Positions 46,179 to 56,667 are shown, counted from the stretch's first letter. The stretch: DNA of 64,000 nt from an uncultured Enterobacteriaceae bacterium (GCA_964601155.1 CAZRMO010000003.1:21066-85065); one strand, 5' to 3'. Notes: a model not told the origin generated them from the sequence alone. Program-made: numbers and translations.

Positions 46179-47822
46179 TTGAATTCCCCACCTTTCATCC
46201 AGACCCAAGTCCTGATCATCGGCGGCGGCGCCACGGGCACGGCGCTGGCGCGAGACCTCGCCTTGCGCGGCGTCGACTGCATCCTTGTCGAAAAGAACGA
46301 CATCAACGCCGGCGCCTCGGGGCGCAATCATGGCCTGCTCCACAGCGGCGCCCGCTACGTCGCGGGCGACCCCCAGGTGGCGATCGAGTGCCGCGCCGAG
46401 GGCGCCATTCTCAAACGCATGGCGGCGCAGACGATCCAGGATACCGGCGGCTATTTCGTCGCGGTGCAGGGCGACGACGAACGTTATATCGCCGACTTCC
46501 CTTCGCTTTGCGCGCGCGCGGGAATCGCTGCGCGCGCAGTGGACCCCGCCGCGGCGCGCGCGCTGGAACCGGCGCTCTCGGAACGCACGATTGCGGTGTT
46601 CGAGGTGCCCGACGCATCGATCGACCCGTTCCGGCTCTCCCTGGAAACCATGGCTCATGCGCGCAGCCTGGGCGCGCGGCTGATGCGGCGCACCCAGGTC
46701 GTAGGCTTCGAGCGCGAGGGCCGGCGCATCCGCGCAGTGCGGCTTCGGTCACTGACTGGCGGCGAGGACCTGCGTATCGAGGCCGAGCAGGTCATCAATG
46801 CAGCGGGCGCCTGGGCGCCCGAAGTGGCCTTGCTCGCCGGAGCGCCGATCGAGATGACGTACTCCAAGGGAACGCTGCTGGTCACGCACACACGTCTGGC
46901 CGAGCGCGCGGTGACCCGCCTGCGGCCGCCGGCCGACGCCGACATCCTGATGCCGGCCGGCACGGTCTCCATCGTCGGCACGACGTCGACCCCCGTTAAT
47001 ACCTTGGACGACATCCAGCCGACGACGGCCGAAGCCGACCTGATCGTGGCAGAGGCCGCGCGCATGCTGCCGGCCTTGGCGACGATGCGCTACATCCGCG
47101 CTTTCGCGGGCGTGCGACCGCTCGTAGGTTCGGCGGGTCTTGCCGACGGCCGTGCCATTTCGCGCGGCTACGCCCTGTTCGACCACGAGGATCAGGGTCT
47201 GGACAATTTTGCGACGATCACCGGGGGCAAGCTCAGCACCTGCCGGCTAATGGCCGAACGCGCCGCGGACCTGCTGTGCCGGCGCCTCGGCGTGACGCGC
47301 CCCTGCGTCACGGCCACGATGCCCTTGCCTGTGGCTCCGGAATGCGAGTGGACCGAACCGGGACGTTCCCCGCGCGCGTGGATGCGTAGCCACGCGCGGG
47401 ACGATACGCTGCTGTGCGAGTGCGAGTTGGTTCCGGGCCGCGCCGTCGACGCCATCTACGACGCGCTGCGCGCGGCAGGCGACACGCCGACGCTGACGGA
47501 CATCGGCTTGCGCAGCCGCGTCGGCAAGGGCGCTTGCCAGGGGGCCTTCTGCGCGCCACGCACCGTGGCCCATCTCTACAACCGCGGCGACTTCCAGGCG
47601 CGTCGCGGCCTCGCCGAGATTGTCGATTTCTTCGATGAGCGCTGGCGCGGCCAGCGCGCGGTCCTGTGGGGCGAGCAACTCGCCCAGGCCGAGTTGATGG
47701 AAGCGCTGCATTGCGGCACTTTCGGGGAGGAACTGCGCGGAGAAGAGTTGCGCGATGCCCGCATGGACGACGCACCGCGCGCCGCGCCGAACGCGGACCC
47801 GGCGGGTAAGGCGTCGCGGTGA
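46179..47822 (+). CDS. glpA: Anaerobic glycerol-3-phosphate dehydrogenase subunit A
   Basis: 547 aa. FAD fold VLIIGGGATGTALARDLALRG, GASGRNHGLLHSGARY, C-terminal BFD-like [2Fe-2S] region CECE...C.GAFC. TTG start. Confidence 0.88.
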   Translation: MNSPPFIQTQVLIIGGGATGTALARDLALRGVDCILVEKNDINAGASGRNHGLLHSGARYVAGDPQVAIECRAEGAILKRMAAQTIQDTGGYFVAVQGDDERYIADFPSLCARAGIAARAVDPAAARALEPALSERTIAVFEVPDASIDPFRLSLETMAHARSLGARLMRRTQVVGFEREGRRIRAVRLRSLTGGEDLRIEAEQVINAAGAWAPEVALLAGAPIEMTYSKGTLLVTHTRLAERAVTRLRPPADADILMPAGTVSIVGTTSTPVNTLDDIQPTTAEADLIVAEAARMLPALATMRYIRAFAGVRPLVGSAGLADGRAISRGYALFDHEDQGLDNFATITGGKLSTCRLMAERAADLLCRRLGVTRPCVTATMPLPVAPECEWTEPGRSPRAWMRSHARDDTLLCECELVPGRAVDAIYDALRAAGDTPTLTDIGLRSRVGKGACQGAFCAPRTVAHLYNRGDFQARRGLAEIVDFFDERWRGQRAVLWGEQLAQAELMEALHCGTFGEELRGEELRDARMDDAPRAAPNADPAGKASR

Positions 47823-49123
47823 CGGGCGCAAGGCAGGAAAGCTGCGACCTTGCCGTGATCGGCGCCGGAATGGCAGGCATGGCGGCGGCCCTGTTCGCCG
47901 CGGAGCGTGGACTTTCGTGCATCCAAATCGGCAACAGCGGCGGCCTGCTGTTCGCGAGTGGCTTGCTCGACCTTCTGGGCGTACACCCGGTGGCCGAGGG
48001 GCGCCTGTGGCAATCGCCTTACGCAGGCCTCGAGGCGCTCGCCCGGGACGAGCCCGACCATCCTCTGGCGCGTGTCGACGCCGCCTCGATCCGCAACGCG
48101 CTCGAGACCTTCGTCGCGGCGCTCGGCAGTGCCGGGCTTGCATATGCGCCTCTGGCCGACCGGAATCGCAAGTTGCTCACGTCTATCGGGACGGTCAAGA
48201 CCACATTCGGCGTGCCGCGATCGATGGTCGCGGGCGACTATGCGCTGGAGGCACGGCCACCTTGCCTGTTGGCGGACTTCCGCGGACTGCGCGAGTTCAG
48301 CGCAGCGCAGATCGCAGCGACGCTGGGCGATCGCTGGCCCGGTCTGCGCCATCAGCAGATCGAGTTCCCCGGTCATGAAGCCGTGCCCGAACTCTATGCT
48401 GCGCACCTCGCGCGCGCCCTCGAAAGCGGAGAGACGTGCGGGCGGACAATCGCCCTGGTGAAGCCGCTGCTCGGCGACGCGCGCGTGGTCGGATTCCCGG
48501 CGGTCCTTGGCCTCGCGCGCGCGGGCGCGGTCCACGCCGCGTTCGAGGCTGCGCTCCGAATACCGGTGTTCGAGATTCCGACCATGCCGACGTCGGTGCC
48601 CGGGCTGCGCCTGCAGGGCGCGCTGGAAACGGCTGTGTCGGTCCGCGGCGTGCATCGGCGCCAGCAGGCAAGGGTGCGCGCTTTGTCTTTCGAAGCGGAC
48701 GGGGGCAGGGCCGTGCTCGAACTCGACGGTATTCCGGGCGGCGAGCGCGTGCTCGCCCGTGCGGTGGTGCTGGCCACGGGGCGATTCAGCGGCCGCGGCC
48801 TCACCGCCGATCGCGGCTGCGTCCGCGAGAGCATCCTCGGCCTGCCCGTGGCTCAGCCCAACTCGCGCGAGGCCTGGCACCAGCGCGACTTCCTCGACCC
48901 GGCGGGCCACGCGATAAACCGCGCCGGCCTGTCCATCGACGAGGTTTGGCGGCCCCTGGGCGCGAACGGAAAGCCGGTGTGGCCGCGGCTCTACGCCGTC
49001 GGCTCCATCCTCGCGCACCAGGATTGGATGCGCTCGAAGTGCGGCTCGGGCTTGTCCATCGCCACGGCCTGGGCGGCGGTGGACCAAGTGGCGCGCCAGC
49101 TCCGCGGCAATGGGACAGGGTAG
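47819..49123 (+). CDS. glpB: Anaerobic glycerol-3-phosphate dehydrogenase subunit B
   Basis: 434 aa. DLAVIGAGMAGMAAALFAAERG dinucleotide fold. GTGA overlap with the glpA stop. Confidence 0.8.
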   Translation: MTGARQESCDLAVIGAGMAGMAAALFAAERGLSCIQIGNSGGLLFASGLLDLLGVHPVAEGRLWQSPYAGLEALARDEPDHPLARVDAASIRNALETFVAALGSAGLAYAPLADRNRKLLTSIGTVKTTFGVPRSMVAGDYALEARPPCLLADFRGLREFSAAQIAATLGDRWPGLRHQQIEFPGHEAVPELYAAHLARALESGETCGRTIALVKPLLGDARVVGFPAVLGLARAGAVHAAFEAALRIPVFEIPTMPTSVPGLRLQGALETAVSVRGVHRRQQARVRALSFEADGGRAVLELDGIPGGERVLARAVVLATGRFSGRGLTADRGCVRESILGLPVAQPNSREAWHQRDFLDPAGHAINRAGLSIDEVWRPLGANGKPVWPRLYAVGSILAHQDWMRSKCGSGLSIATAWAAVDQVARQLRGNGTG

Positions 49124-49319
49124 CTAGTGTCCCGAGTCGCTAATTCGCTGAAGAAAAGACGCCGAGAATCGACGCCATACGGCGTTGCAAATGCTCGCAA
49201 GGTGTCCAACCTTGCTGCGCTTTGCGCCTTGTCTGGCGCCGATTTCGCCGCTTTTCCGCTTCAACCATTGTTTCGTCCTCAGGCAATTGTTCAACGAACT
49301 AGCGACTCGGGACACTAGC
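49123..49319. mobile_element. MITE-like non-autonomous element or long terminal-inverted-repeat structure
   Basis: Perfect 20-bp terminal inverted repeats: GCTAGTGTCCCGAGTCGCTA (49123-49142) and TAGCGACTCGGGACACTAGC (49300-49319). Imperfect pairing continues about 11 bp inward. No coding capacity. Fills the whole glpB-to-next-gene spacer. Confidence 0.6.
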
Positions 49320-49320
49320 C

Positions 49321-51045
49321 ATGTCGCCTGTGCTTTTCCAGACCGCCCTTTACATCTCGCTCGCGCTGTGCGGCCTGGGCCTCATCTGGCGCGCCTCGGC
49401 CTGGTTCAGGGTCCGGATCGGTACCGATGCGCGCGCTGTCACGTGGTCCGCGCGCATGGCTGCGCTGTTTCGCGGCACCACCTGGGTTTTGTTCAGCCGG
49501 CGCCTGTTCGCCGTGCTCGGCGCCTTCTTTCTCGATGTGCTGCTGCTGCGCAGGCTGTACACGCACGAGAAGCTGCGCTGGTTCGCACACCTGCTCATCG
49601 TGGTCGGCTTTATGCTGCTCCTGCTGCTGCACGCCCTCGCGCCGATCGTGAGCGCGAAGCTGTTTCCGGGCTACCAGCCCACGCTCGATCCCTACCTGTT
49701 TCTGCGCGATCTCTTCGGAGTGATGGTTCTGGCTGGCGCCGCTCTGCTGTTGCTCGGACGCCGGCCTGCCCGCAGGGACCTGGCGCAAACGCGCGATCGG
49801 TTCGGCGCGGCCTTCATGGCGCTCCTCGCGTTTGTTCTCGTCTCGGGATTCCTGCTCGAAGCCTGCAAGATCGCATCGCCGCACGCCTTCTACCGCATGA
49901 CGGACCAGTTCATGGGCACCACCGATCCCCAGAAACTCGCGCCGCTGCGCGCCCTCTGGGGGAGCGAGTTCGGGGTGGCGTTCGCCGACATGAAGCAGCC
50001 GATCGACCCGCTCCTGCTGGAGCAGGGGCGCAAACTGAACAGCGAATCCTGTGCGTCCTGTCACGCGAAGCCGGCGTCCGCTTTCGTCTCCTACCCGCTG
50101 GCACGGATGCTGGCGCCCGTGACCCGCCTTCTGGACGAAGGACATGCGGATGTCTGGCTACTCTATCTTCATGTGTTCGCCTGCTTCCTCGGCCTGGCGA
50201 GCCTGCCGTTCACCCGCTTCTTCCACGTGGTGGCAGCTCCGCTCAGCCTGCTCGTCGACGCCGCGTCGCAGGATCCGGCGTTCTCGACCCATACGTTTTC
50301 GACCGCGGGTCGCGCTATGCGGCGGGCGCTGGCGCTCGACGCCTGCGTGCGCTGCGGCATCTGCGATCTGCGCTGCTCGGTGGCCCCGCTGGCGCGCTAC
50401 CTGGGCAACCCGGGTCTGCTGCCCTCGCACAAGCTGCTCGCCACCGGCGCCCTGGCCGGCGGCCGGCTGCTGCGTGCTGGCCACGAAGACGAGGCGCTGC
50501 GGGCCGCCGACGGGGCCTTCCTCTGCACCGACTGCGGACGCTGCACCAGCCGCTGCCCGGTGGGTATCGATCTGGCGGACCTGTGGCAGGCCGGACGCGG
50601 CGATTTGGCCGCAGCAGGACTTCCGACGCCCGCACAGTGGGTGCAGGCAAATCCGGCGCTTGAATGGGCCGAGTTTCTGCAGGCAGATTCCGGACTGCAT
50701 ACGCTTGACGATCCGGATGCCTCCAGTGCACCGCTCTCGTCCGAGCGCAGCACGTTCTCCCGCTGCGTTCAGTGCCAGACCTGCACTAACGTTTGCCCGG
50801 TGGTGGCGCACAGCATCGACGCCGAGCACGGTATCGACCTTACGCCGCAGAAGGTGATGAACCTGCTGCGGCTTGGCCTGCGCGACCTTACGCTGGGTTC
50901 GCGCATGGTATGGGACTGCGCGACCTGCTACCAGTGCCAGGAGAGCTGCCCGGAAGGCATACGCGTGGCCGACATCATGTGCGAGCTGCGCGGCTTGGCG
51001 GTACAGCGGTTGGGCTCCGTTCGGAACTGGAAGGAGCACGCATGA
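49321..51045 (+). CDS. Membrane-anchored iron-sulfur protein: NarI/DsrM-like polytopic N-domain fused to a four-[4Fe-4S]-motif domain
   Basis: N-terminal region of about 330 aa with at least 5 hydrophobic helices carrying His (HLLIVVG, LLHAL, LHVFACF, FFHVV). C-terminal CVRCGICDLRC, CTDCGRCTSRCP, CVQCQTCTNVCP, CATCYQCQESCP. Confidence 0.75.
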   Translation: MSPVLFQTALYISLALCGLGLIWRASAWFRVRIGTDARAVTWSARMAALFRGTTWVLFSRRLFAVLGAFFLDVLLLRRLYTHEKLRWFAHLLIVVGFMLLLLLHALAPIVSAKLFPGYQPTLDPYLFLRDLFGVMVLAGAALLLLGRRPARRDLAQTRDRFGAAFMALLAFVLVSGFLLEACKIASPHAFYRMTDQFMGTTDPQKLAPLRALWGSEFGVAFADMKQPIDPLLLEQGRKLNSESCASCHAKPASAFVSYPLARMLAPVTRLLDEGHADVWLLYLHVFACFLGLASLPFTRFFHVVAAPLSLLVDAASQDPAFSTHTFSTAGRAMRRALALDACVRCGICDLRCSVAPLARYLGNPGLLPSHKLLATGALAGGRLLRAGHEDEALRAADGAFLCTDCGRCTSRCPVGIDLADLWQAGRGDLAAAGLPTPAQWVQANPALEWAEFLQADSGLHTLDDPDASSAPLSSERSTFSRCVQCQTCTNVCPVVAHSIDAEHGIDLTPQKVMNLLRLGLRDLTLGSRMVWDCATCYQCQESCPEGIRVADIMCELRGLAVQRLGSVRNWKEHA

Positions 51046-51848
51046 AATACGCGCTGTTCCTCGGCTGCAAGATCCCTGCACAGCTGCCGGCCTACGAGAC
51101 GTCCATGCGCGCCGTGCTCGGGCACCTCGGTGTCACCCTGATCGATCTGGAGTTCAACTGCTGCGGCTATCCGGCGCGGAATTACAGCCATGACGCCTTC
51201 GTGGTGGCAGCCGCCCATAACCTGGCCCTGGCGGAGCGCGCCGGCCTCGACCTGCTGACGCCCTGCAGTTGTTGCTTCGGCACCCTGCGGCACGCGATCC
51301 GGTTCCTGAACGAGGACGCGCAGCTGCGCGCGCGCGTTGCCCAGGCGCTGGCCGCCGAGGGCCTCGCCTGGTCGGGAAAGACCCAGGTCGAGCACTTGCT
51401 GCCGCTGTTGGCGCGTACGATCGGCGTTGACGCTCTTGCGGCCGCGGTGCGCATCCCGCACGCGGGGCTGCGTGTGGCCGCCCAATACGGCTGCCACGCG
51501 CTGCGCCCCAGCGACGTGAGCGGAATCGACAACGCGATGGCGCCGACGCTGTTCGAAACGCTGATCAGCTTGACCGGTGCGACCCCGGTCGACTGGCCAC
51601 GCCGGCTGGACTGCTGCGGTGATCCGCTGCACGAAGCGAACACCGCATTGTCCGAGCGTATGACGCAAGCGAAGATCGCCGATGCGCTCGAGTCCGGTGC
51701 CGAAGCCATCTGCTCGGCCTGCCCTCACTGCCAGCTGCGCTTCGACGCAGTCCAGGCGGAGAGCACTGACCCTTCGATTCGCACGCTGCTCTACACGCAG
51801 CTTCTCGGTCTGGCGATGGGCCTGCCCGCGAAATCCCTCGGGCTGTAG
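51042..51848 (+). CDS. CCG-domain protein (heterodisulfide reductase subunit B / GlpC C-terminal half-like)
   Basis: 268 aa. Two Cys-rich CCG motifs (FNCCGYP, LDCCGDP) plus CSCCFG and CPHCQ. ATGA overlap with the previous gene. Confidence 0.8.
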   Translation: MKYALFLGCKIPAQLPAYETSMRAVLGHLGVTLIDLEFNCCGYPARNYSHDAFVVAAAHNLALAERAGLDLLTPCSCCFGTLRHAIRFLNEDAQLRARVAQALAAEGLAWSGKTQVEHLLPLLARTIGVDALAAAVRIPHAGLRVAAQYGCHALRPSDVSGIDNAMAPTLFETLISLTGATPVDWPRRLDCCGDPLHEANTALSERMTQAKIADALESGAEAICSACPHCQLRFDAVQAESTDPSIRTLLYTQLLGLAMGLPAKSLGL

Positions 51849-52061
51849 CTTTCGGGAACGGCGCGTCATCGGCGCCGGACGGTCGCAGTAGGTGGGGTGT
51901 GCGAAATGCGGCGGTATTGAAATTCCCGTCTTTTCTTGATTTCCCTCAAGGGGCTCCTTTCGGGGTAGGTTAAAAAGACGATGTTGACCGAGTGGATGCT
52001 TCCGGCGGCCGGCGAGTATTCCCGCGCTCAGGGGCGGGCCAATGAATTAAGGGGGAACGCA

Positions 52062-53381
52062 ATGAAACGCAGATTAGGGCTGGTGATCGGACTGGCATGG
52101 GCGCTGGGCGTGTATCTCGTGCCGCAGTCCGCTCTCGCCGCTGGCAAGGTCGAGATTACCTGGTGGCATGCGATGAGCGGCAACAACGGCAAGGTGGTGG
52201 ACGCGATCGTGAAGGATTTCAACGCAGCGAATCCCAATATCGAGTTGAAAGCGCTGTATACCGGAAACTATCCGGAGACCATGACCAAATACATTACCGC
52301 GTATCGGGCCAAGACGGCCCCCAACCTGGTGCAGGCATACGAGGTCGGGACGCAGCAGATGCTCTCCAGCGGCGCGATCATCCCCGTATACCAGATACCC
52401 GGAATGGTCGGCGAAAAGTGGGACTGGGCCCAGTACGTGATACCGATCACGCACTATTACTCGACGGACGGAAACTTGTGGTCGATGCCGTTCAATTCGT
52501 CCACGGCGATGCTGTACTACAACAGGGATATGTTCGCCAAGGCGGGGCTCGATCCGAACAAACCGCCGACGAACTGGGACGAGTTGGAGGCCGACGGCAA
52601 GAAGCTGCTGGCAAGCGGCGCGGTAAAGCACGTGCTTTCCTTCGGCTGGCCGGGGTGGGTGTTTGAGCAGATGTTTACCAGCCACAACCAGCTCTTTGCC
52701 AATCATGAGAACGGGCGCAGCGGCCTTGCGACGAAGGTGAATTTCAACGACGCTTTCGGCAACATGGTGCTGAACACCTGGACCCGGCTGGCGAAGGAAA
52801 ACATATTCATCTATGGCGGGCCGGAATACTCGGCGAACTCCGCCTTCGAGTCCGGACAGATCGCGATGCTGATCCAGTCGACTTCCTCCCTGCGAGGGAT
52901 CGAGAAGGGTTCGCAATTCAAGGTCGGGACGACCTTCCTGCCGCGCTTCGAAGGCTATCCGCGCGGCAACTCGGTCATCGGCGGCGCGAGCCTGTGGGTG
53001 ACCAAGGGACAAAGCAAGGAGCAGCTGCGCGCGGTATGGACGTTCCTGAAGTACCTGGCGAAGCCCGAAGTAGCGCTTGCGTGGCACAAGGGGACCGGTT
53101 ACTTCCCGACGGTCAACGCCGCAGTGCAGGACCTTATGACCGAAGGCTGGTTCACCAAGGATCAGAACTACCTCACCGCCTTCCTGCAGGTGCTGTCCGG
53201 CCGGCGCGATACTGCGGCCGCCACCGGCGTGCGCATGGGTCCGTTCGTGCAGATCCGCGAGCTCGAGCGCACCGCGATCGAGAAATCCGTATCGGGCCAG
53301 CTCTCGCCCAAGGCCGCCCTGGATGAATCGGCGCGCAAGGCCGACCAACTGCTGGTAGATTTTGCGCAGATGAACCGATAG
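52062..53381 (+). CDS. ugpB: sn-Glycerol-3-phosphate ABC transporter substrate-binding protein
   Basis: Signal peptide. ITWWHAMSG..GK.V......FNA.NP.I.....Y.GNY, PFNSSTAMLYYN.D.F.KAGLDP..PP..W and IGGASLWV..G......W.FL.YLAKPE....WH..TGY.P align with E. coli UgpB as I recall it. Confidence 0.85.
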   Translation: MKRRLGLVIGLAWALGVYLVPQSALAAGKVEITWWHAMSGNNGKVVDAIVKDFNAANPNIELKALYTGNYPETMTKYITAYRAKTAPNLVQAYEVGTQQMLSSGAIIPVYQIPGMVGEKWDWAQYVIPITHYYSTDGNLWSMPFNSSTAMLYYNRDMFAKAGLDPNKPPTNWDELEADGKKLLASGAVKHVLSFGWPGWVFEQMFTSHNQLFANHENGRSGLATKVNFNDAFGNMVLNTWTRLAKENIFIYGGPEYSANSAFESGQIAMLIQSTSSLRGIEKGSQFKVGTTFLPRFEGYPRGNSVIGGASLWVTKGQSKEQLRAVWTFLKYLAKPEVALAWHKGTGYFPTVNAAVQDLMTEGWFTKDQNYLTAFLQVLSGRRDTAAATGVRMGPFVQIRELERTAIEKSVSGQLSPKAALDESARKADQLLVDFAQMNR

Positions 53382-53444
53382 AGATCCGTCTCGCGGGGAG
53401 GGGGCGTGCCTCCGTCCCCGCGAGGATGGCTCAAGCTGGCGTCT

Positions 53445-54350
53445 ATGGCAACCGTCGTTGAGGAGGAGCGCTTCCCGGGGCACCGTTTGCTTCCGTTCAT
53501 GCTGATCCTGCCGTCGCTCGCAGTGATCGGCGTCTTCCTGGTCGTACCGTTCCTGCAGAGCGTGCAGGGATCCTTTTACCAGACCACGGCCTTCGGTACG
53601 CACAGCGTATATGTCGGGCTGCGCAATTACTCCCGTCTGTTCGAGTCGTCCGAGTTCCGCAATAGCGCGTTTGCCACGCTGCTATTCGCCGCTTTCGTGA
53701 TGGTGATCGGGCTGAGCTTTTCGCTGGGTATCGCACACCTCCTGAACCAGAAGATCCGGGGTCGGGGCATGTATCAGATCGCGCTCATCTGGACCTATGC
53801 GCTCTCGCCCGCGGTGGCGGGGGCGATCTGGGCCCTGATGTTCGCGCCGTCGACCGGGATCGTGCCGTTTGTCGTCGCCAAGCTGTTCCATGGCTATTTC
53901 ATCAACTGGATGACCAACGGCTCGCTCGCGCTGTTCGTCGTATCAGCCGCCGCGACGTGGAAGATGCTCGGCTACAACATCGTGTTCTTTCTCGCCGGAT
54001 TGCAGAATATTCCCGAAGAGTTCATCGATGCTGCGCGGGTGGACGGCGCCAGCCCGTGGCGGACGTTCTGGGACATCACCTTCCCGATGCTGTCGCCGAC
54101 GACGACGTTCCTGCTGTTCGTTAACATGATCTACGCGTTCTTCCAGGTGTTCGGCCTGATCGACATCATGACGCACGGAGGGCCGGGGAACGCGACCAAC
54201 ATCCTCATCTACAAGCTGTACCGGGATGCGTTCCTCTACCTCGACTCCGGCACGGCCTCAGCCGAGTCGTGCATCGTTTTCGTCGTCATCGCGACGGCGT
54301 CGGTCATCCAGCTGCACTTCGCGACGCGCAAGGCGATCTATGCGCGCTAG
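53445..54350 (+). CDS. ugpA: sn-Glycerol-3-phosphate ABC transporter permease
   Basis: 6-TM MalF/UgpA-type permease with the EAA loop FIDAARVDGASPWRTFWDITFPML. Start ATG 53445 is preferred to 53406. Confidence 0.8.
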   Translation: MATVVEEERFPGHRLLPFMLILPSLAVIGVFLVVPFLQSVQGSFYQTTAFGTHSVYVGLRNYSRLFESSEFRNSAFATLLFAAFVMVIGLSFSLGIAHLLNQKIRGRGMYQIALIWTYALSPAVAGAIWALMFAPSTGIVPFVVAKLFHGYFINWMTNGSLALFVVSAAATWKMLGYNIVFFLAGLQNIPEEFIDAARVDGASPWRTFWDITFPMLSPTTTFLLFVNMIYAFFQVFGLIDIMTHGGPGNATNILIYKLYRDAFLYLDSGTASAESCIVFVVIATASVIQLHFATRKAIYAR

Positions 54351-54362
54351 GGAGCAATCGAA

Positions 54363-55190
54363 ATGACCCCACAACGCTGGAAGGCGGGCGCGACCCATGC
54401 CACCCTGATCGCACTGGTGGTGCTGCTCACCTTCCCAGTGGTCTATGCGCTGATCGTGAGCACGCTGAGTTTCCAGCAGGCCTACGAGTATCCCCCACGG
54501 CTGATTCCCGGCACCCAGCTGTGGCACAACGTGGTCGAGGCCTGGGACCGCGTGCACATGGGACGCCTGTTTTTCGTCACTTCCGTCATCTCGGTGGGCG
54601 CGGCGGTGGTGAAGATCATCCTGTCGCTCTTGGCGGCGTTCGCCTACACCCACTTCAGGTTTCGCGGCCGGGCGCTGCTGTTTCCGATGACCATGATCAC
54701 GCAGATGCTGCCGCTGCCGGTGCGGATCCTGCCGACCTACCAGATGATGGCGGACTTCCACTGGATCAACACGTATTCGGGGCTGATGTTTCCGTTTTTC
54801 GCCAGCACCACCGGGATCCTGCTGTTTCGCCAGTTCTTCCTGACCGTGCCGCGCGACATGACGGATGCGGCGCGCATGGACGGCGCGGGGCCGCTGCGCT
54901 ACTTCATCGACATTCTCGTCCCCCTCTCGCGTACCAACATCGCAGCGCTGTTCGTCATCGAGTTCATCTTCATGTGGAGCCAGTACCTGTGGCCCCTGAT
55001 CGTGACCAACACCGCGGAAATGCGGGTGGTGCAGATCGGGCTCAAGATGCTGATCGCCACGGATCAGATTTCCCCGGCGTGGAACGTGATCATGGCCGGC
55101 ACCATCGTCGCGATGCTTCCCCCGCTCGTTGTGCTGGTGGCGTTTCGCAAGAGCTTCACCGAGGGGATCGCGATGCAAACCGCGAAATAG
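54363..55190 (+). CDS. ugpE: sn-Glycerol-3-phosphate ABC transporter permease
   Basis: 275 aa MalG/UgpE-type permease. EAA loop DAARMDGAGPLRYFIDILVPL. Confidence 0.8.
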   Translation: MTPQRWKAGATHATLIALVVLLTFPVVYALIVSTLSFQQAYEYPPRLIPGTQLWHNVVEAWDRVHMGRLFFVTSVISVGAAVVKIILSLLAAFAYTHFRFRGRALLFPMTMITQMLPLPVRILPTYQMMADFHWINTYSGLMFPFFASTTGILLFRQFFLTVPRDMTDAARMDGAGPLRYFIDILVPLSRTNIAALFVIEFIFMWSQYLWPLIVTNTAEMRVVQIGLKMLIATDQISPAWNVIMAGTIVAMLPPLVVLVAFRKSFTEGIAMQTAK

Positions 55191-55200
55191 CGGGCGCGGT

Positions 55201-56667
55201 TCAGACTCCCGTCGCTTCTGCCATCAACGCCCGCCAGCGGCGGTAGCGCGCGCGGATGCCCGCATCTTCGACCGGCGCGAATACTTCTTCGGCGGCGGCT
55301 TGGCTCCAGGACGCAGGCCGTCCGGCGGCAAGGTAGGCGATGCCGCGGGCGGTCGCTTCGGGATCGTCGCGCCGGTGCACGGCAAGTCCGCTCAGCGCGG
55401 CGAGCCTGCGGCACAGGCCATCGATCTGCGACACCCCGCCGCTGACGCGGATGCGCGCGGCCGGCGGCACATACTTCGCCATTTCGTCGATATTCGCCTG
55501 CAACAGAAAGGCCATGCTCTCGACCACTGCGACGGCTTTTTGCGAAGGCTCACCCGTGCCGACGAAACGCGAGGCAAAGTCGGGCTGCCAGAACGGGCCG
55601 CCCAGCCCGGCGATGCCGTTGAGAAACAGCGGCGGTTCACCGGGCGCGGCGAGCCATTGCGGCAGCAGGGCGTCCAACTCCTCCATCCCCAATTCCCGCC
55701 GCAGCCACTCGAGCGCGGTGCCGGCGCCGTTGACGTTGCCCTCGACCGTGTACACGGTGGTCGTGCCGTCGTCGAGGATGATGCCGGTAAGCTGGCGCGG
55801 AACGTAACCGGGATCGCGCGTGAGCGCGCGCTGTACGAAGGCGCTGGTGCCGATGTTGATATAAGCCGAATCCTCTTCTGGCCAGCCGAAGGCGAACACC
55901 GCCGCGGACTGGTCGCCGTTTATCGCCGTGAAGGGAATCGGCGTTTCTCCCACTGTCAGCGTGCCGAACGGGTGGCAGGTGGGCACGCTCTTTGGCAGGA
56001 AGCCCTGCGGCAGGCCGAACAGCGCGAGCAGTTCGGGGTCCCAGTCGCGCGTCGCCAGGTTCCATAGCTGGGTGCGCGCGGCGCATTGCGGGTCGGCGAC
56101 GAACGGATGTTCGTCCAGCAGGCGAAACGCGAGAAAGCTCGCCTGCGGGCCCCAGCAGAGCGTGCCCGCCGCGCGCGCCTCGCGCACCGGCGCCAGATGG
56201 TCCAGCGCCCAACGCAGCTTGCTGGCGCCATAATGCGCCGACAGGAACAATCCGGTCTTGCGGTGCACCAGCTCGCCCTGCGGCTCGAACTGGCGCAGCC
56301 ACTGGTGCGCGCGCCGGTCCTGCCAGCTGAACAGCGGCGACAGCGCCTGTCCGGTCCTGCGATCCCAGCAGATGCAGCTCGAGCGCTGGCTGGCGAGGCC
56401 CGCCGCCGCCACGTCGCCTCGGCGCGCGCCCAGGGACGACAATGCCTGGTCGGCGGCGGAGAAAATCGATTCGACCACCTCGTCGCCGTCCTGCTCGGCC
56501 CAGTCGGGCTGCGGCCGCGCGAGGCCGACCTCCCGCGCGCCGCTCGCGAGCACCTTGCCGCGGCCATCCAGCACCACCGCGCGGCTGGCGTGCGTGCCTT
56601 GGTCTATGGCGAGAAAAAGAGGATCGGGATTCAAGCTGTGTCGGAACCGGCTGCAAAAGGCATTCAC
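55201..56667 (-). CDS. FGGY-family carbohydrate kinase (glycerol kinase-like)
   Basis: 488 aa. N-terminal LAIDQGTHASRAVV phosphate-1 motif and GIAGLGGPFW / C-terminal FGGY patterns. Convergent with ugpE with a 10-nt gap. Confidence 0.8.
   Translation of the reverse strand: MNAFCSRFRHSLNPDPLFLAIDQGTHASRAVVLDGRGKVLASGAREVGLARPQPDWAEQDGDEVVESIFSAADQALSSLGARRGDVAAAGLASQRSSCICWDRRTGQALSPLFSWQDRRAHQWLRQFEPQGELVHRKTGLFLSAHYGASKLRWALDHLAPVREARAAGTLCWGPQASFLAFRLLDEHPFVADPQCAARTQLWNLATRDWDPELLALFGLPQGFLPKSVPTCHPFGTLTVGETPIPFTAINGDQSAAVFAFGWPEEDSAYINIGTSAFVQRALTRDPGYVPRQLTGIILDDGTTTVYTVEGNVNGAGTALEWLRRELGMEELDALLPQWLAAPGEPPLFLNGIAGLGGPFWQPDFASRFVGTGEPSQKAVAVVESMAFLLQANIDEMAKYVPPAARIRVSGGVSQIDGLCRRLAALSGLAVHRRDDPEATARGIAYLAAGRPASWSQAAAEEVFAPVEDAGIRARYRRWRALMAEATGV

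Follow-up and report, generated by a model that had tools for sequence, protein, structure and literature searches.

In Escherichia coli, the anaerobic-type glycerol 3-phosphate (G3P) dehydrogenase GlpABC has as its third component GlpC, a single soluble-type protein in which [4Fe-4S] ferredoxin motifs are paired with two CCG domains and which has neither transmembrane (TM) helices nor haem. The route by which electrons pass from GlpABC to the membrane has long been unclear, and the CCG clusters of E. coli GlpC may be a quinone site, a point of electron entry or a bifurcation branch. This report concerns a four-gene unit of an uncultured betaproteobacterium, found in a 64,000-nucleotide stretch of DNA (GCA_964601155.1 CAZRMO010000003.1:21066-85065; the whole stretch is referred to as the window). 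The four genes probably encode one membrane-bound G3P:quinone oxidoreductase, in which a cytochrome and iron-sulfur (Fe-S) module of the HdrF/EMO type wires GlpAB to the membrane instead of GlpC.

The closest described arrangement comes from a sulfate reducer. The name HdrF was coined for proteins of Desulfobacterium autotrophicum HRM2 that combine multiple transmembrane helices with parts homologous to HdrC and HdrB (Strittmatter et al. 2009, PMC2702500). In that genome a two-gene version (hdrF1/F1') and hdrF2 adjoin glpAB, and electron transfer from GlpAB was proposed (PMC2702500). HdrF is known from genome annotation alone, and the paper names no CxxCH motif, four cubane sites or histidine ligands. 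This 2009 genome paper was the only work found in the literature on GlpAB with HdrB, HdrC, HdrF or a cytochrome b, and no later study was found. A 2026 survey recorded about 3% of GlpA homologues without GlpB or GlpC, which were not described there (PMC13689815).

The structurally characterised relatives are fed by electron transfer flavoprotein (ETF). In EMO and EtfD, ETF passes electrons to non-cubane clusters, then to two cubane clusters, to a proximal haem b and finally to menaquinone (PMC13083937; bioRxiv 10.64898/2026.08.18.745454). Menaquinone is reached directly in EtfD and via a distal 'twin haem' in Syntrophus EMO (PMC13083937; bioRxiv 10.64898/2026.08.18.745454). The membrane complexes HdrDE, DsrMK and QmoC are likewise built from a NarI-family cytochrome b, an HdrC-type dicluster domain and CCG domains. 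None of them works with GlpAB.

A glpAB unit with an HdrF/EMO-type partner

The unit consists of glpA, glpB, a 574-aa gene and a 268-aa gene, all co-directional (window 46179-51848), with reading frames backed by codon-position G+C content. The gene glpA (46179-47822, plus strand, as are all features of the unit; TTG start) encodes the 547-aa flavin adenine dinucleotide subunit of an anaerobic-type G3P dehydrogenase. Its product was assigned to the GlpA subunit of E. coli-type GlpABC by NF008313 (480 bits, cut-off 425) and fell just under the cut-off of TIGR03377 (549.8 against 552.8 bits). It also matches Pfam DAO (E 2e-48) and carries a BFD-like [2Fe-2S] motif, CxC...CxxxxC (Cys413/415/453/458), at its C-terminus. 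A GTGA overlap, read directly in the sequence, joins it to glpB (47819-49123), whose 434-aa product is the second flavoprotein subunit and was assigned to GlpB by NF003725 (534 bits, cut-off 345). The 574-aa gene (49321-51045) encodes a five-helix NarI-like domain and four CxxCxxCxxxC motifs. It shares an ATGA overlap with the 268-aa gene (51042-51848), which encodes an HdrB-like protein with two CCG domains and is preceded by the ribosome-binding site GGAAGGAG. A model's earlier account of the window, the sequence-only reading, had named these four genes, their GTGA and ATGA couplings, the four cysteine motifs, the two CCG motifs and a CASCH sequence in a loop of the membrane domain, and every one of these elements was recovered.

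The gene order is conserved well beyond this genome. Loci were collected in two scans of species-representative genomes, one with a single protein (37 loci) and one with an alignment (445 loci, of which the best 80 were kept). The order glpA-glpB-membrane/Fe-S gene-hdrB held in all 33 loci long enough to judge in the first scan and in 54 of the 58 with room for all four genes in the second. Because the four genes are colinear in so many loci, their arrangement is not due to chance. Carriers were found in Burkholderiales, Rhodocyclaceae, Comamonadaceae, Myxococcota, Oligoflexales, Spirochaetota/Leptospirales, NC10 and Desulfobacterales, at 41-91% identity. Almost all of these are metagenome-assembled genomes (MAGs); the labels Desulfocicer vacuolatum and Desulfosudis oleivorans appear on one carrier each. 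Within the window's genus about 10 of 23 genomes carry the membrane/Fe-S gene, and it is absent from the 18 other genera that were sampled in the order. The unit is accessory, since its presence is patchy within genus and order, and this patchy spread with recurrence in distant phyla suggests horizontal transfer.

The N-terminal membrane domain of the 574-aa protein (49321-50265) contains five TM helices by hydropathy, at residues ~5-27, 87-109, 127-147, 164-185 and 277-299. Lysine and arginine residues number 11 in the loop after TM1 and 5 in the loop after TM3, both predicted to be cytoplasmic, against 1 in the short outer loop after TM2. An N-out/C-in topology as in NarI is therefore predicted, and the positive-inside pattern would place the Fe-S domains in the cytoplasm. 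His90 and His104 on TM2 and His284 and His302 on TM5 are invariant in alignments of homologues, one of which contains 23 sequences down to 40% identity. This is the NarI-type pattern of two histidines on TM2 and two on TM5 spaced 18 residues apart. When a permissive profile search was used, His284 and His302 fell exactly on His187 and His205 of NarI, a weak match (E 0.05-0.13). In the same search His90 fell on His78 of EtfD, and His104 lay opposite a glutamate of EtfD. His78 is a published haem ligand of EtfD, which has no distal haem (PMC13083937). The Pfam family Nitrate_red_gam (PF02665) gave a marginal match over TM5 (23.1 bits, cut-off 22.9). Since these sequence matches are weak, the assignment of haem ligands rests on alignment register and invariance. 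From its position the full four-His set is predicted to ligate two haems b, one proximal and one distal. Topology and histidine spacing had been put forward earlier as a check against NarI, and the five predicted helices and the TM5 register agree with it.

The fold of the 574-aa protein was also predicted. An AlphaFold2 model had a predicted local distance difference test score (pLDDT) of 85-90 across the membrane domain and below 50 at residues 466-542. The only significant match of this predicted fold in the PDB (Foldseek) was EtfD of Mycobacterium smegmatis, 9OJN (E 4e-5, probability 1.0, 488 columns). This match, with a TM-score of 0.43/0.35 and ~14% identity, has the NarI-like TM part and the HdrC-like part in one fold.

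The C-terminal half of the 574-aa protein has strong Pfam Fer4_8 and Fer4_17 matches and contains the four CxxCxxCxxxC motifs at Cys342-352, 402-412, 482-492 and 533-543. All 16 cluster cysteines are invariant in the 23-homologue alignment. The motifs form two dicluster domains and thus predict four cubane [4Fe-4S] sites. The first domain, which is ferredoxin-like (residues ~335-425; 50323-50595; two motifs, Fer4_8 E 2e-21), resembles the N-terminal ferredoxin part of HmcF/TmcB/DsrK and of SdhB, with partial HmcF/TmcB/SdhB matches. The second (residues ~472-564; 50734-51012) is a homologue of HdrC (5odc_C profile E 6e-15), and it also matches TIGR03290 (E 4e-19) and QmoC (E 5e-18).

The 268-aa protein carries its CCG motifs at C40C41G and C191C192G, in two Pfam CCG domains (E 6e-24), so that the profile check proposed for CCG and Fer4 families was positive for both. 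In phmmer comparisons it aligned over its full length with methanogen HdrB chains (9sfi_C and 5odc_B; E 4e-49 to 4e-46), and 10 of the 10 cysteine ligands of the two non-cubane [4Fe-4S] clusters of HdrB are in register. Its scores of 195 bits on HdrB TIGR03288 (cut-off 345) and 73 bits on NF041780 (cut-off 450) place it below equivalog level for methanogen HdrB function.

What has become of GlpC? No canonical glpC was found in this 96%-complete genome, where the best TIGR03379 match reached 174 bits (cut-off 280). The operon itself contains no single-subunit GlpC with two ferredoxin motifs, two CCG domains and no TM helices, as the sequence-only reading had maintained, and its own parts scored 43.5 and 21.7 bits on GlpC models. 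That reading had further proposed that the function of GlpC was split between two proteins. Replacement of GlpC was upheld by the analysis. Its origin by splitting was rejected, with the CCG protein at 195 bits on HdrB against about 22 on GlpC. Since the HdrB score far exceeds the GlpC score, the third component is a recruited HdrBC-type module and not a GlpC cut in two. The central claim, a NarI/HdrE-type cytochrome-Fe-S fusion that together with a CCG protein replaces GlpC as a dedicated membrane exit, is supported computationally by synteny, the EtfD fold, histidine register and topology.

The locus can now be set beside the described systems. Like HdrF, it has a multi-helix domain, HdrC and HdrB parts and clustering with glpAB. 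The two-gene layout of HdrF1/F1' beside glpAB recurs here as well, a correspondence to the paper's description and not to sequence. The HdrF host is a sulfate reducer, whereas the present host is a betaproteobacterium. Relatives of the unit do occur in Desulfobacteraceae (Desulfocicer and Desulfosudis), at 41% identity and with glpAB upstream; a scan seeded from Desulfocicer returned only Desulfocicer and Desulfosudis MAGs.

The module resembles EMO and EtfD (M. smegmatis EtfD 9OJN and Syntrophus aciditrophicus EMO) in three domains: a five-helix haem b domain like that of NarI, a dicluster domain like HdrC and a non-cubane domain like HdrB. EMO and EtfD form a wire from cytoplasm to membrane fed by a flavoprotein, as the module is proposed to do, and the candidate proximal ligand His90 aligns with EtfD His78. 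EMO consists of one polypeptide with two cubane clusters, whereas the present module has four cubane sites and carries its HdrB part on a protein of its own. One haem b is present in EtfD and three, including the twin haem, in S. aciditrophicus EMO; here there is a four-His set and a CxxCH motif. The donor also differs, being ETF in EMO/EtfD and GlpAB here, and no etfAB genes were found in the window region or in related loci. As for E. coli GlpABC, GlpA and GlpB are equivalogs, and the likeness of the third component ends with the combination of ferredoxin motifs and CCG domains, as the present pair adds TM helices and predicted haem.

The pair had been called DsrMK/HdrED-like. An HdrE/NarI-type cytochrome is indeed indicated, whereas DsrMK is not the closest system, HdrF and EMO/EtfD being closer. 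HdrDE and DsrMK have their Fe-S and CCG parts fused in one protein, apart from the cytochrome subunit; here it is the cytochrome that is joined to the Fe-S domains. QmoC has its HdrC domain N-terminal to the membrane domain and has no HdrB. The present proteins scored only 23 bits on DsrK (cut-off 400) and 66 on QmoC (cut-off 300).

The CxxCH/Met loop as a candidate haem c site

The membrane domain has one feature that was not described in the literature found. The loop between TM4 and TM5 (residues 186-276, 91 residues; 49876-50148), predicted to be periplasmic, contains a CxxCH motif and an upstream methionine. The motif is CASCH (Cys244-x-x-Cys247-His248; 50050-50064), and the methionine is Met193 (49897-49899). 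Both are invariant in the 23-homologue alignment. They are likewise present in all 79 distinct loop sequences of the fetched loci, down to 32% identity, and in 120 of 120 close homologues. A profile of the membrane domain alone matched 167 clusters (50% identity level) at E <1e-30 and 456 at E <1e-10. Among the full-length representatives of such matches, 63 of 66 have CxxCH in the equivalent place, most of them with four cluster motifs.

The surrounding stretch, GRxLxxxxCxxCH, resembles the haem sites of class I cytochromes c. About 20 of 28 weak PDB profile matches were c-type cytochromes aligned on CxxCH, each individually insignificant (E 0.2-3). A model of the loop alone (residues 183-280, built from 32 sequences, pLDDT 81) gave no PDB match with E <5, a structural result that is neither for nor against haem c. 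Cytochrome c maturation genes were found in this genome and in 22 of 24 carrier genomes. Their presence discriminates weakly because 9 of 14 control genomes already have them. On balance, the conserved motif favours a covalently bound haem at CxxCH, a candidate site. Such a haem c could belong to the quinone site, where EMO has the second haem of its twin haem, or it could form an exit to periplasmic cytochromes.

A wider generalisation may be drawn, although it is rather unlikely to be right in full. The family would be a tri-haem b/c branch of the NarI/HdrE/EMO superfamily, with two haems b on four histidines and a periplasmic His/Met haem c. This branch would comprise at least 167 clusters (E <1e-30) and take electrons from GlpAB in most lineages and, in Desulfobacterales, from HdrA/HdrL-like proteins with MetF/MetV. 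Its haem c would replace the second twin haem of EMO or export electrons past the quinone pool.

Proposed electron path and its rivals

How would such a complex work? Every part of the unit is homologous to a known component and the gene unit is conserved, which together argue for a G3P:quinone oxidoreductase with an EMO-type wire. The steps and their order are taken by analogy from the solved structures of EMO and EtfD. G3P would be oxidised by GlpA, and electrons would leave the GlpAB flavins for the non-cubane clusters of the HdrB-like subunit. From there they would pass to the HdrC-like dicluster domain and on to the DsrK-like dicluster domain. The latter would reduce the proximal haem b (His90/His302), which would in turn reduce the distal haem b (His104/His284), and the distal haem would hand the electrons to quinone in the membrane. 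CxxCH and Met would bind a third, covalent haem beside the distal haem b, as part of the quinone site or as a second exit to periplasmic cytochromes.

The same haems can be read as a route across the membrane. The two haems b and haem c would then pass G3P electrons to periplasmic c-type cytochromes (and further to oxidases, N-oxide reductases or metal reduction), bypassing the quinone pool. A full NarI-type four-His set across the membrane and an invariant CxxCH and Met in a predicted periplasmic loop are what this route would use. The module is also found in hosts with different quinones, the Betaproteobacteria being of the ubiquinone type and the Myxococcota and Desulfobacterales of the menaquinone type. 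Such export is nevertheless unlikely: no periplasmic cytochrome gene is conserved beside the unit in the loci of both scans, the loop has no match to a cytochrome c fold, and (methyl)menaquinone is the acceptor of EMO and EtfD, the relatives that have been characterised (PMC13083937; bioRxiv 10.64898/2026.08.18.745454). A further proposal concerns the flavins. GlpAB could bifurcate, sending one electron via the HdrBC-like/cytochrome module to quinone and thereby driving the other to NAD+ (or ferredoxin) at GlpB. Bifurcation was shown for FngABC, which has a GlpA homologue as its A subunit, and was proposed for GlpABC too, where the quinone branch would run through the CCG subunit (Schut et al. 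2026, PMC13689815). Distant relatives of the membrane module, moreover, adjoin HdrA/HdrL-like flavoproteins and MetF/MetV, a setting typical of bifurcating complexes. For any GlpABC, however, bifurcation is still a hypothesis in that study (PMC13689815), and no sequence feature here separates a bifurcating enzyme from a simple dehydrogenase. Bifurcation at this locus is distinctly improbable, and it would extend the G3P:quinone oxidoreductase explanation rather than oppose it.

The HdrB-like subunit might instead be a thiol/disulfide reductase acting on a DsrC-like, lipoyl or low-molecular-weight disulfide, with electrons from G3P or the membrane. It keeps all ten active-site cluster cysteines of HdrB and is nearer to genuine HdrB than to GlpC. 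The sequence-only reading had offered a version of this idea, linked to the lipoyl and acyl carrier protein (ACP) genes that lie immediately upstream in the window as part of an E1/E2(lipoyl)/ACP cassette. That link did not survive the comparison, since just 3 loci and one partial of 33 have the cassette next to the unit. Nor is any gene for a thiol carrier conserved alongside it. In EMO and EtfD these clusters act in electron transfer and the substrate cavity is closed (bioRxiv 10.64898/2026.08.18.745454; PMC13083937). A disulfide reductase is accordingly the most remote of these readings and highly improbable.

A G3P:quinone oxidoreductase wired by an HdrF/EMO-type module is thus the preferred explanation, and several points weigh against it. 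In sequence, NarI and EtfD are matched only weakly (E 0.05-0.13, and PF02665 only 0.2 bits over its cut-off). The second dicluster domain was modelled at pLDDT <50, and the CxxCH loop has no recognisable cytochrome c fold. A 197-bp repeat element breaks the operon in this genome. The HdrB-like protein retains all catalytic-site cysteines, which is compatible with a thiol/disulfide activity. The most general point is energetic. The G3P/dihydroxyacetone phosphate couple lies at about -190 mV (PMC13689815). Transfer from G3P to quinone is exergonic and needs no dihaem wire through the membrane, and such a wire would run down the membrane potential if quinone were reduced at the outer face. For this reason the two haems b and the possible haem c are left unexplained.

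Surroundings, relatives and wider meaning

The repeat element lies in the spacer between glpB and the 574-aa gene (49123-49319, 197 bp), which it fills exactly from the glpB stop to the start of the next gene. It has perfect 20-bp terminal inverted repeats, with ends GCTAGTGTCCCGAGTCGCTA ... TAGCGACTCGGGACACTAGC, and looks like an insertion of the miniature inverted-repeat transposable element type into the operon. The corresponding spacer is ~10 bp in locus L001, and the 197-bp element is outside the conserved unit.

Downstream of the unit lie ugpB-, ugpA- and ugpE-like genes for ATP-binding cassette uptake of G3P (51981-55190, plus strand). Their best NCBIfam scores were 317 bits for UgpB, 235 for UgpA and 252 for UgpE, all below cut-off. 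Among the 33 loci compared, L001 has such genes after the unit, L020 and L023 have them at a greater distance, and no other locus has them downstream. They are followed by a convergent gene for a glycerol-kinase-like FGGY kinase (55201-56667, minus strand), homologues of which lie near the unit in L001, L002, L003, L008, L013 and L015. The kinase may act on a substrate other than glycerol, because its score on the GlpK model TIGR01311 is far under the cut-off (250 against 590 bits). The Ugp-like genes and the GlpK-like kinase fit G3P as substrate, yet they are not conserved with the unit. Directly upstream of glpA, the window contains the cassette of AMP-ligase, E1, E2(lipoyl) and ACP genes. 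A functional tie between this cassette and the unit was rejected: with so few loci having it upstream, it is a neighbour rather than a partner.

Elsewhere in the genome, other genes for G3P oxidation were observed. A match to aerobic-type GlpD (733 bits; contig C55:12718-14208, L046) was reported with one in-frame TGA. A second pair, glpA2-glpB2, lies on contig C38 (L052:3-3645) and is 52% and 46% identical to glpA and glpB of the window. Upstream of glpA2 is a gene for a soluble protein of HdrD-like (HmcF/TmcB/DsrK-like) type, which in this genome is truncated by the end of the contig. In two congeners this partner of glpA2-glpB2 has 429-455 aa, and a full-length example is found in G003:C1 (L132:3441-4730, minus strand). 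As judged from its genes, the organism has three routes of G3P oxidation, two of them with Hdr-like partners.

Other arrangements of the module were seen among distant relatives. In three representatives of ~712 aa (P0155, P0179 and P0229), the CxxCH membrane domain is followed by two cluster motifs and then by two fused CCG motifs, an apparent EMO-like single-chain form. In a Desulfobacterales/Thermodesulfobacteriota subgroup (L117, L118, L119 and L125; 37-40% identity), the membrane gene and hdrB occur without glpAB upstream, and CxxCH and the upstream Met are kept. HdrA/HdrL-like flavoproteins (920-1024 aa) flank the module in both loci scanned for them (L118:77-11682 and L125:6007-11754), and L118 additionally has MetF and MetV. 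Because the module occurs without glpAB beside such flavoproteins, it would serve further donors.

The combination of glpAB with an HdrF/EMO-type module, on record in annotation since 2009, is widespread and biochemically uncharacterised. Its genes are at present labelled only as '4Fe-4S dicluster domain-containing protein' or 'HdrC/nitrate reductase gamma', and surveys score the carriers as having no GlpC. The unit would bring in G3P as a new donor for the EMO/EtfD architecture and would add common environmental Betaproteobacteria, Myxococcota and Spirochaetota to its hosts. GlpAB with an explicit cytochrome anchor of the EMO/HdrDE kind would also be a tractable system for locating electron entry and quinone reduction. 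Should CxxCH indeed bind haem, these proteins would form a new family of hybrid b/c membrane cytochromes.

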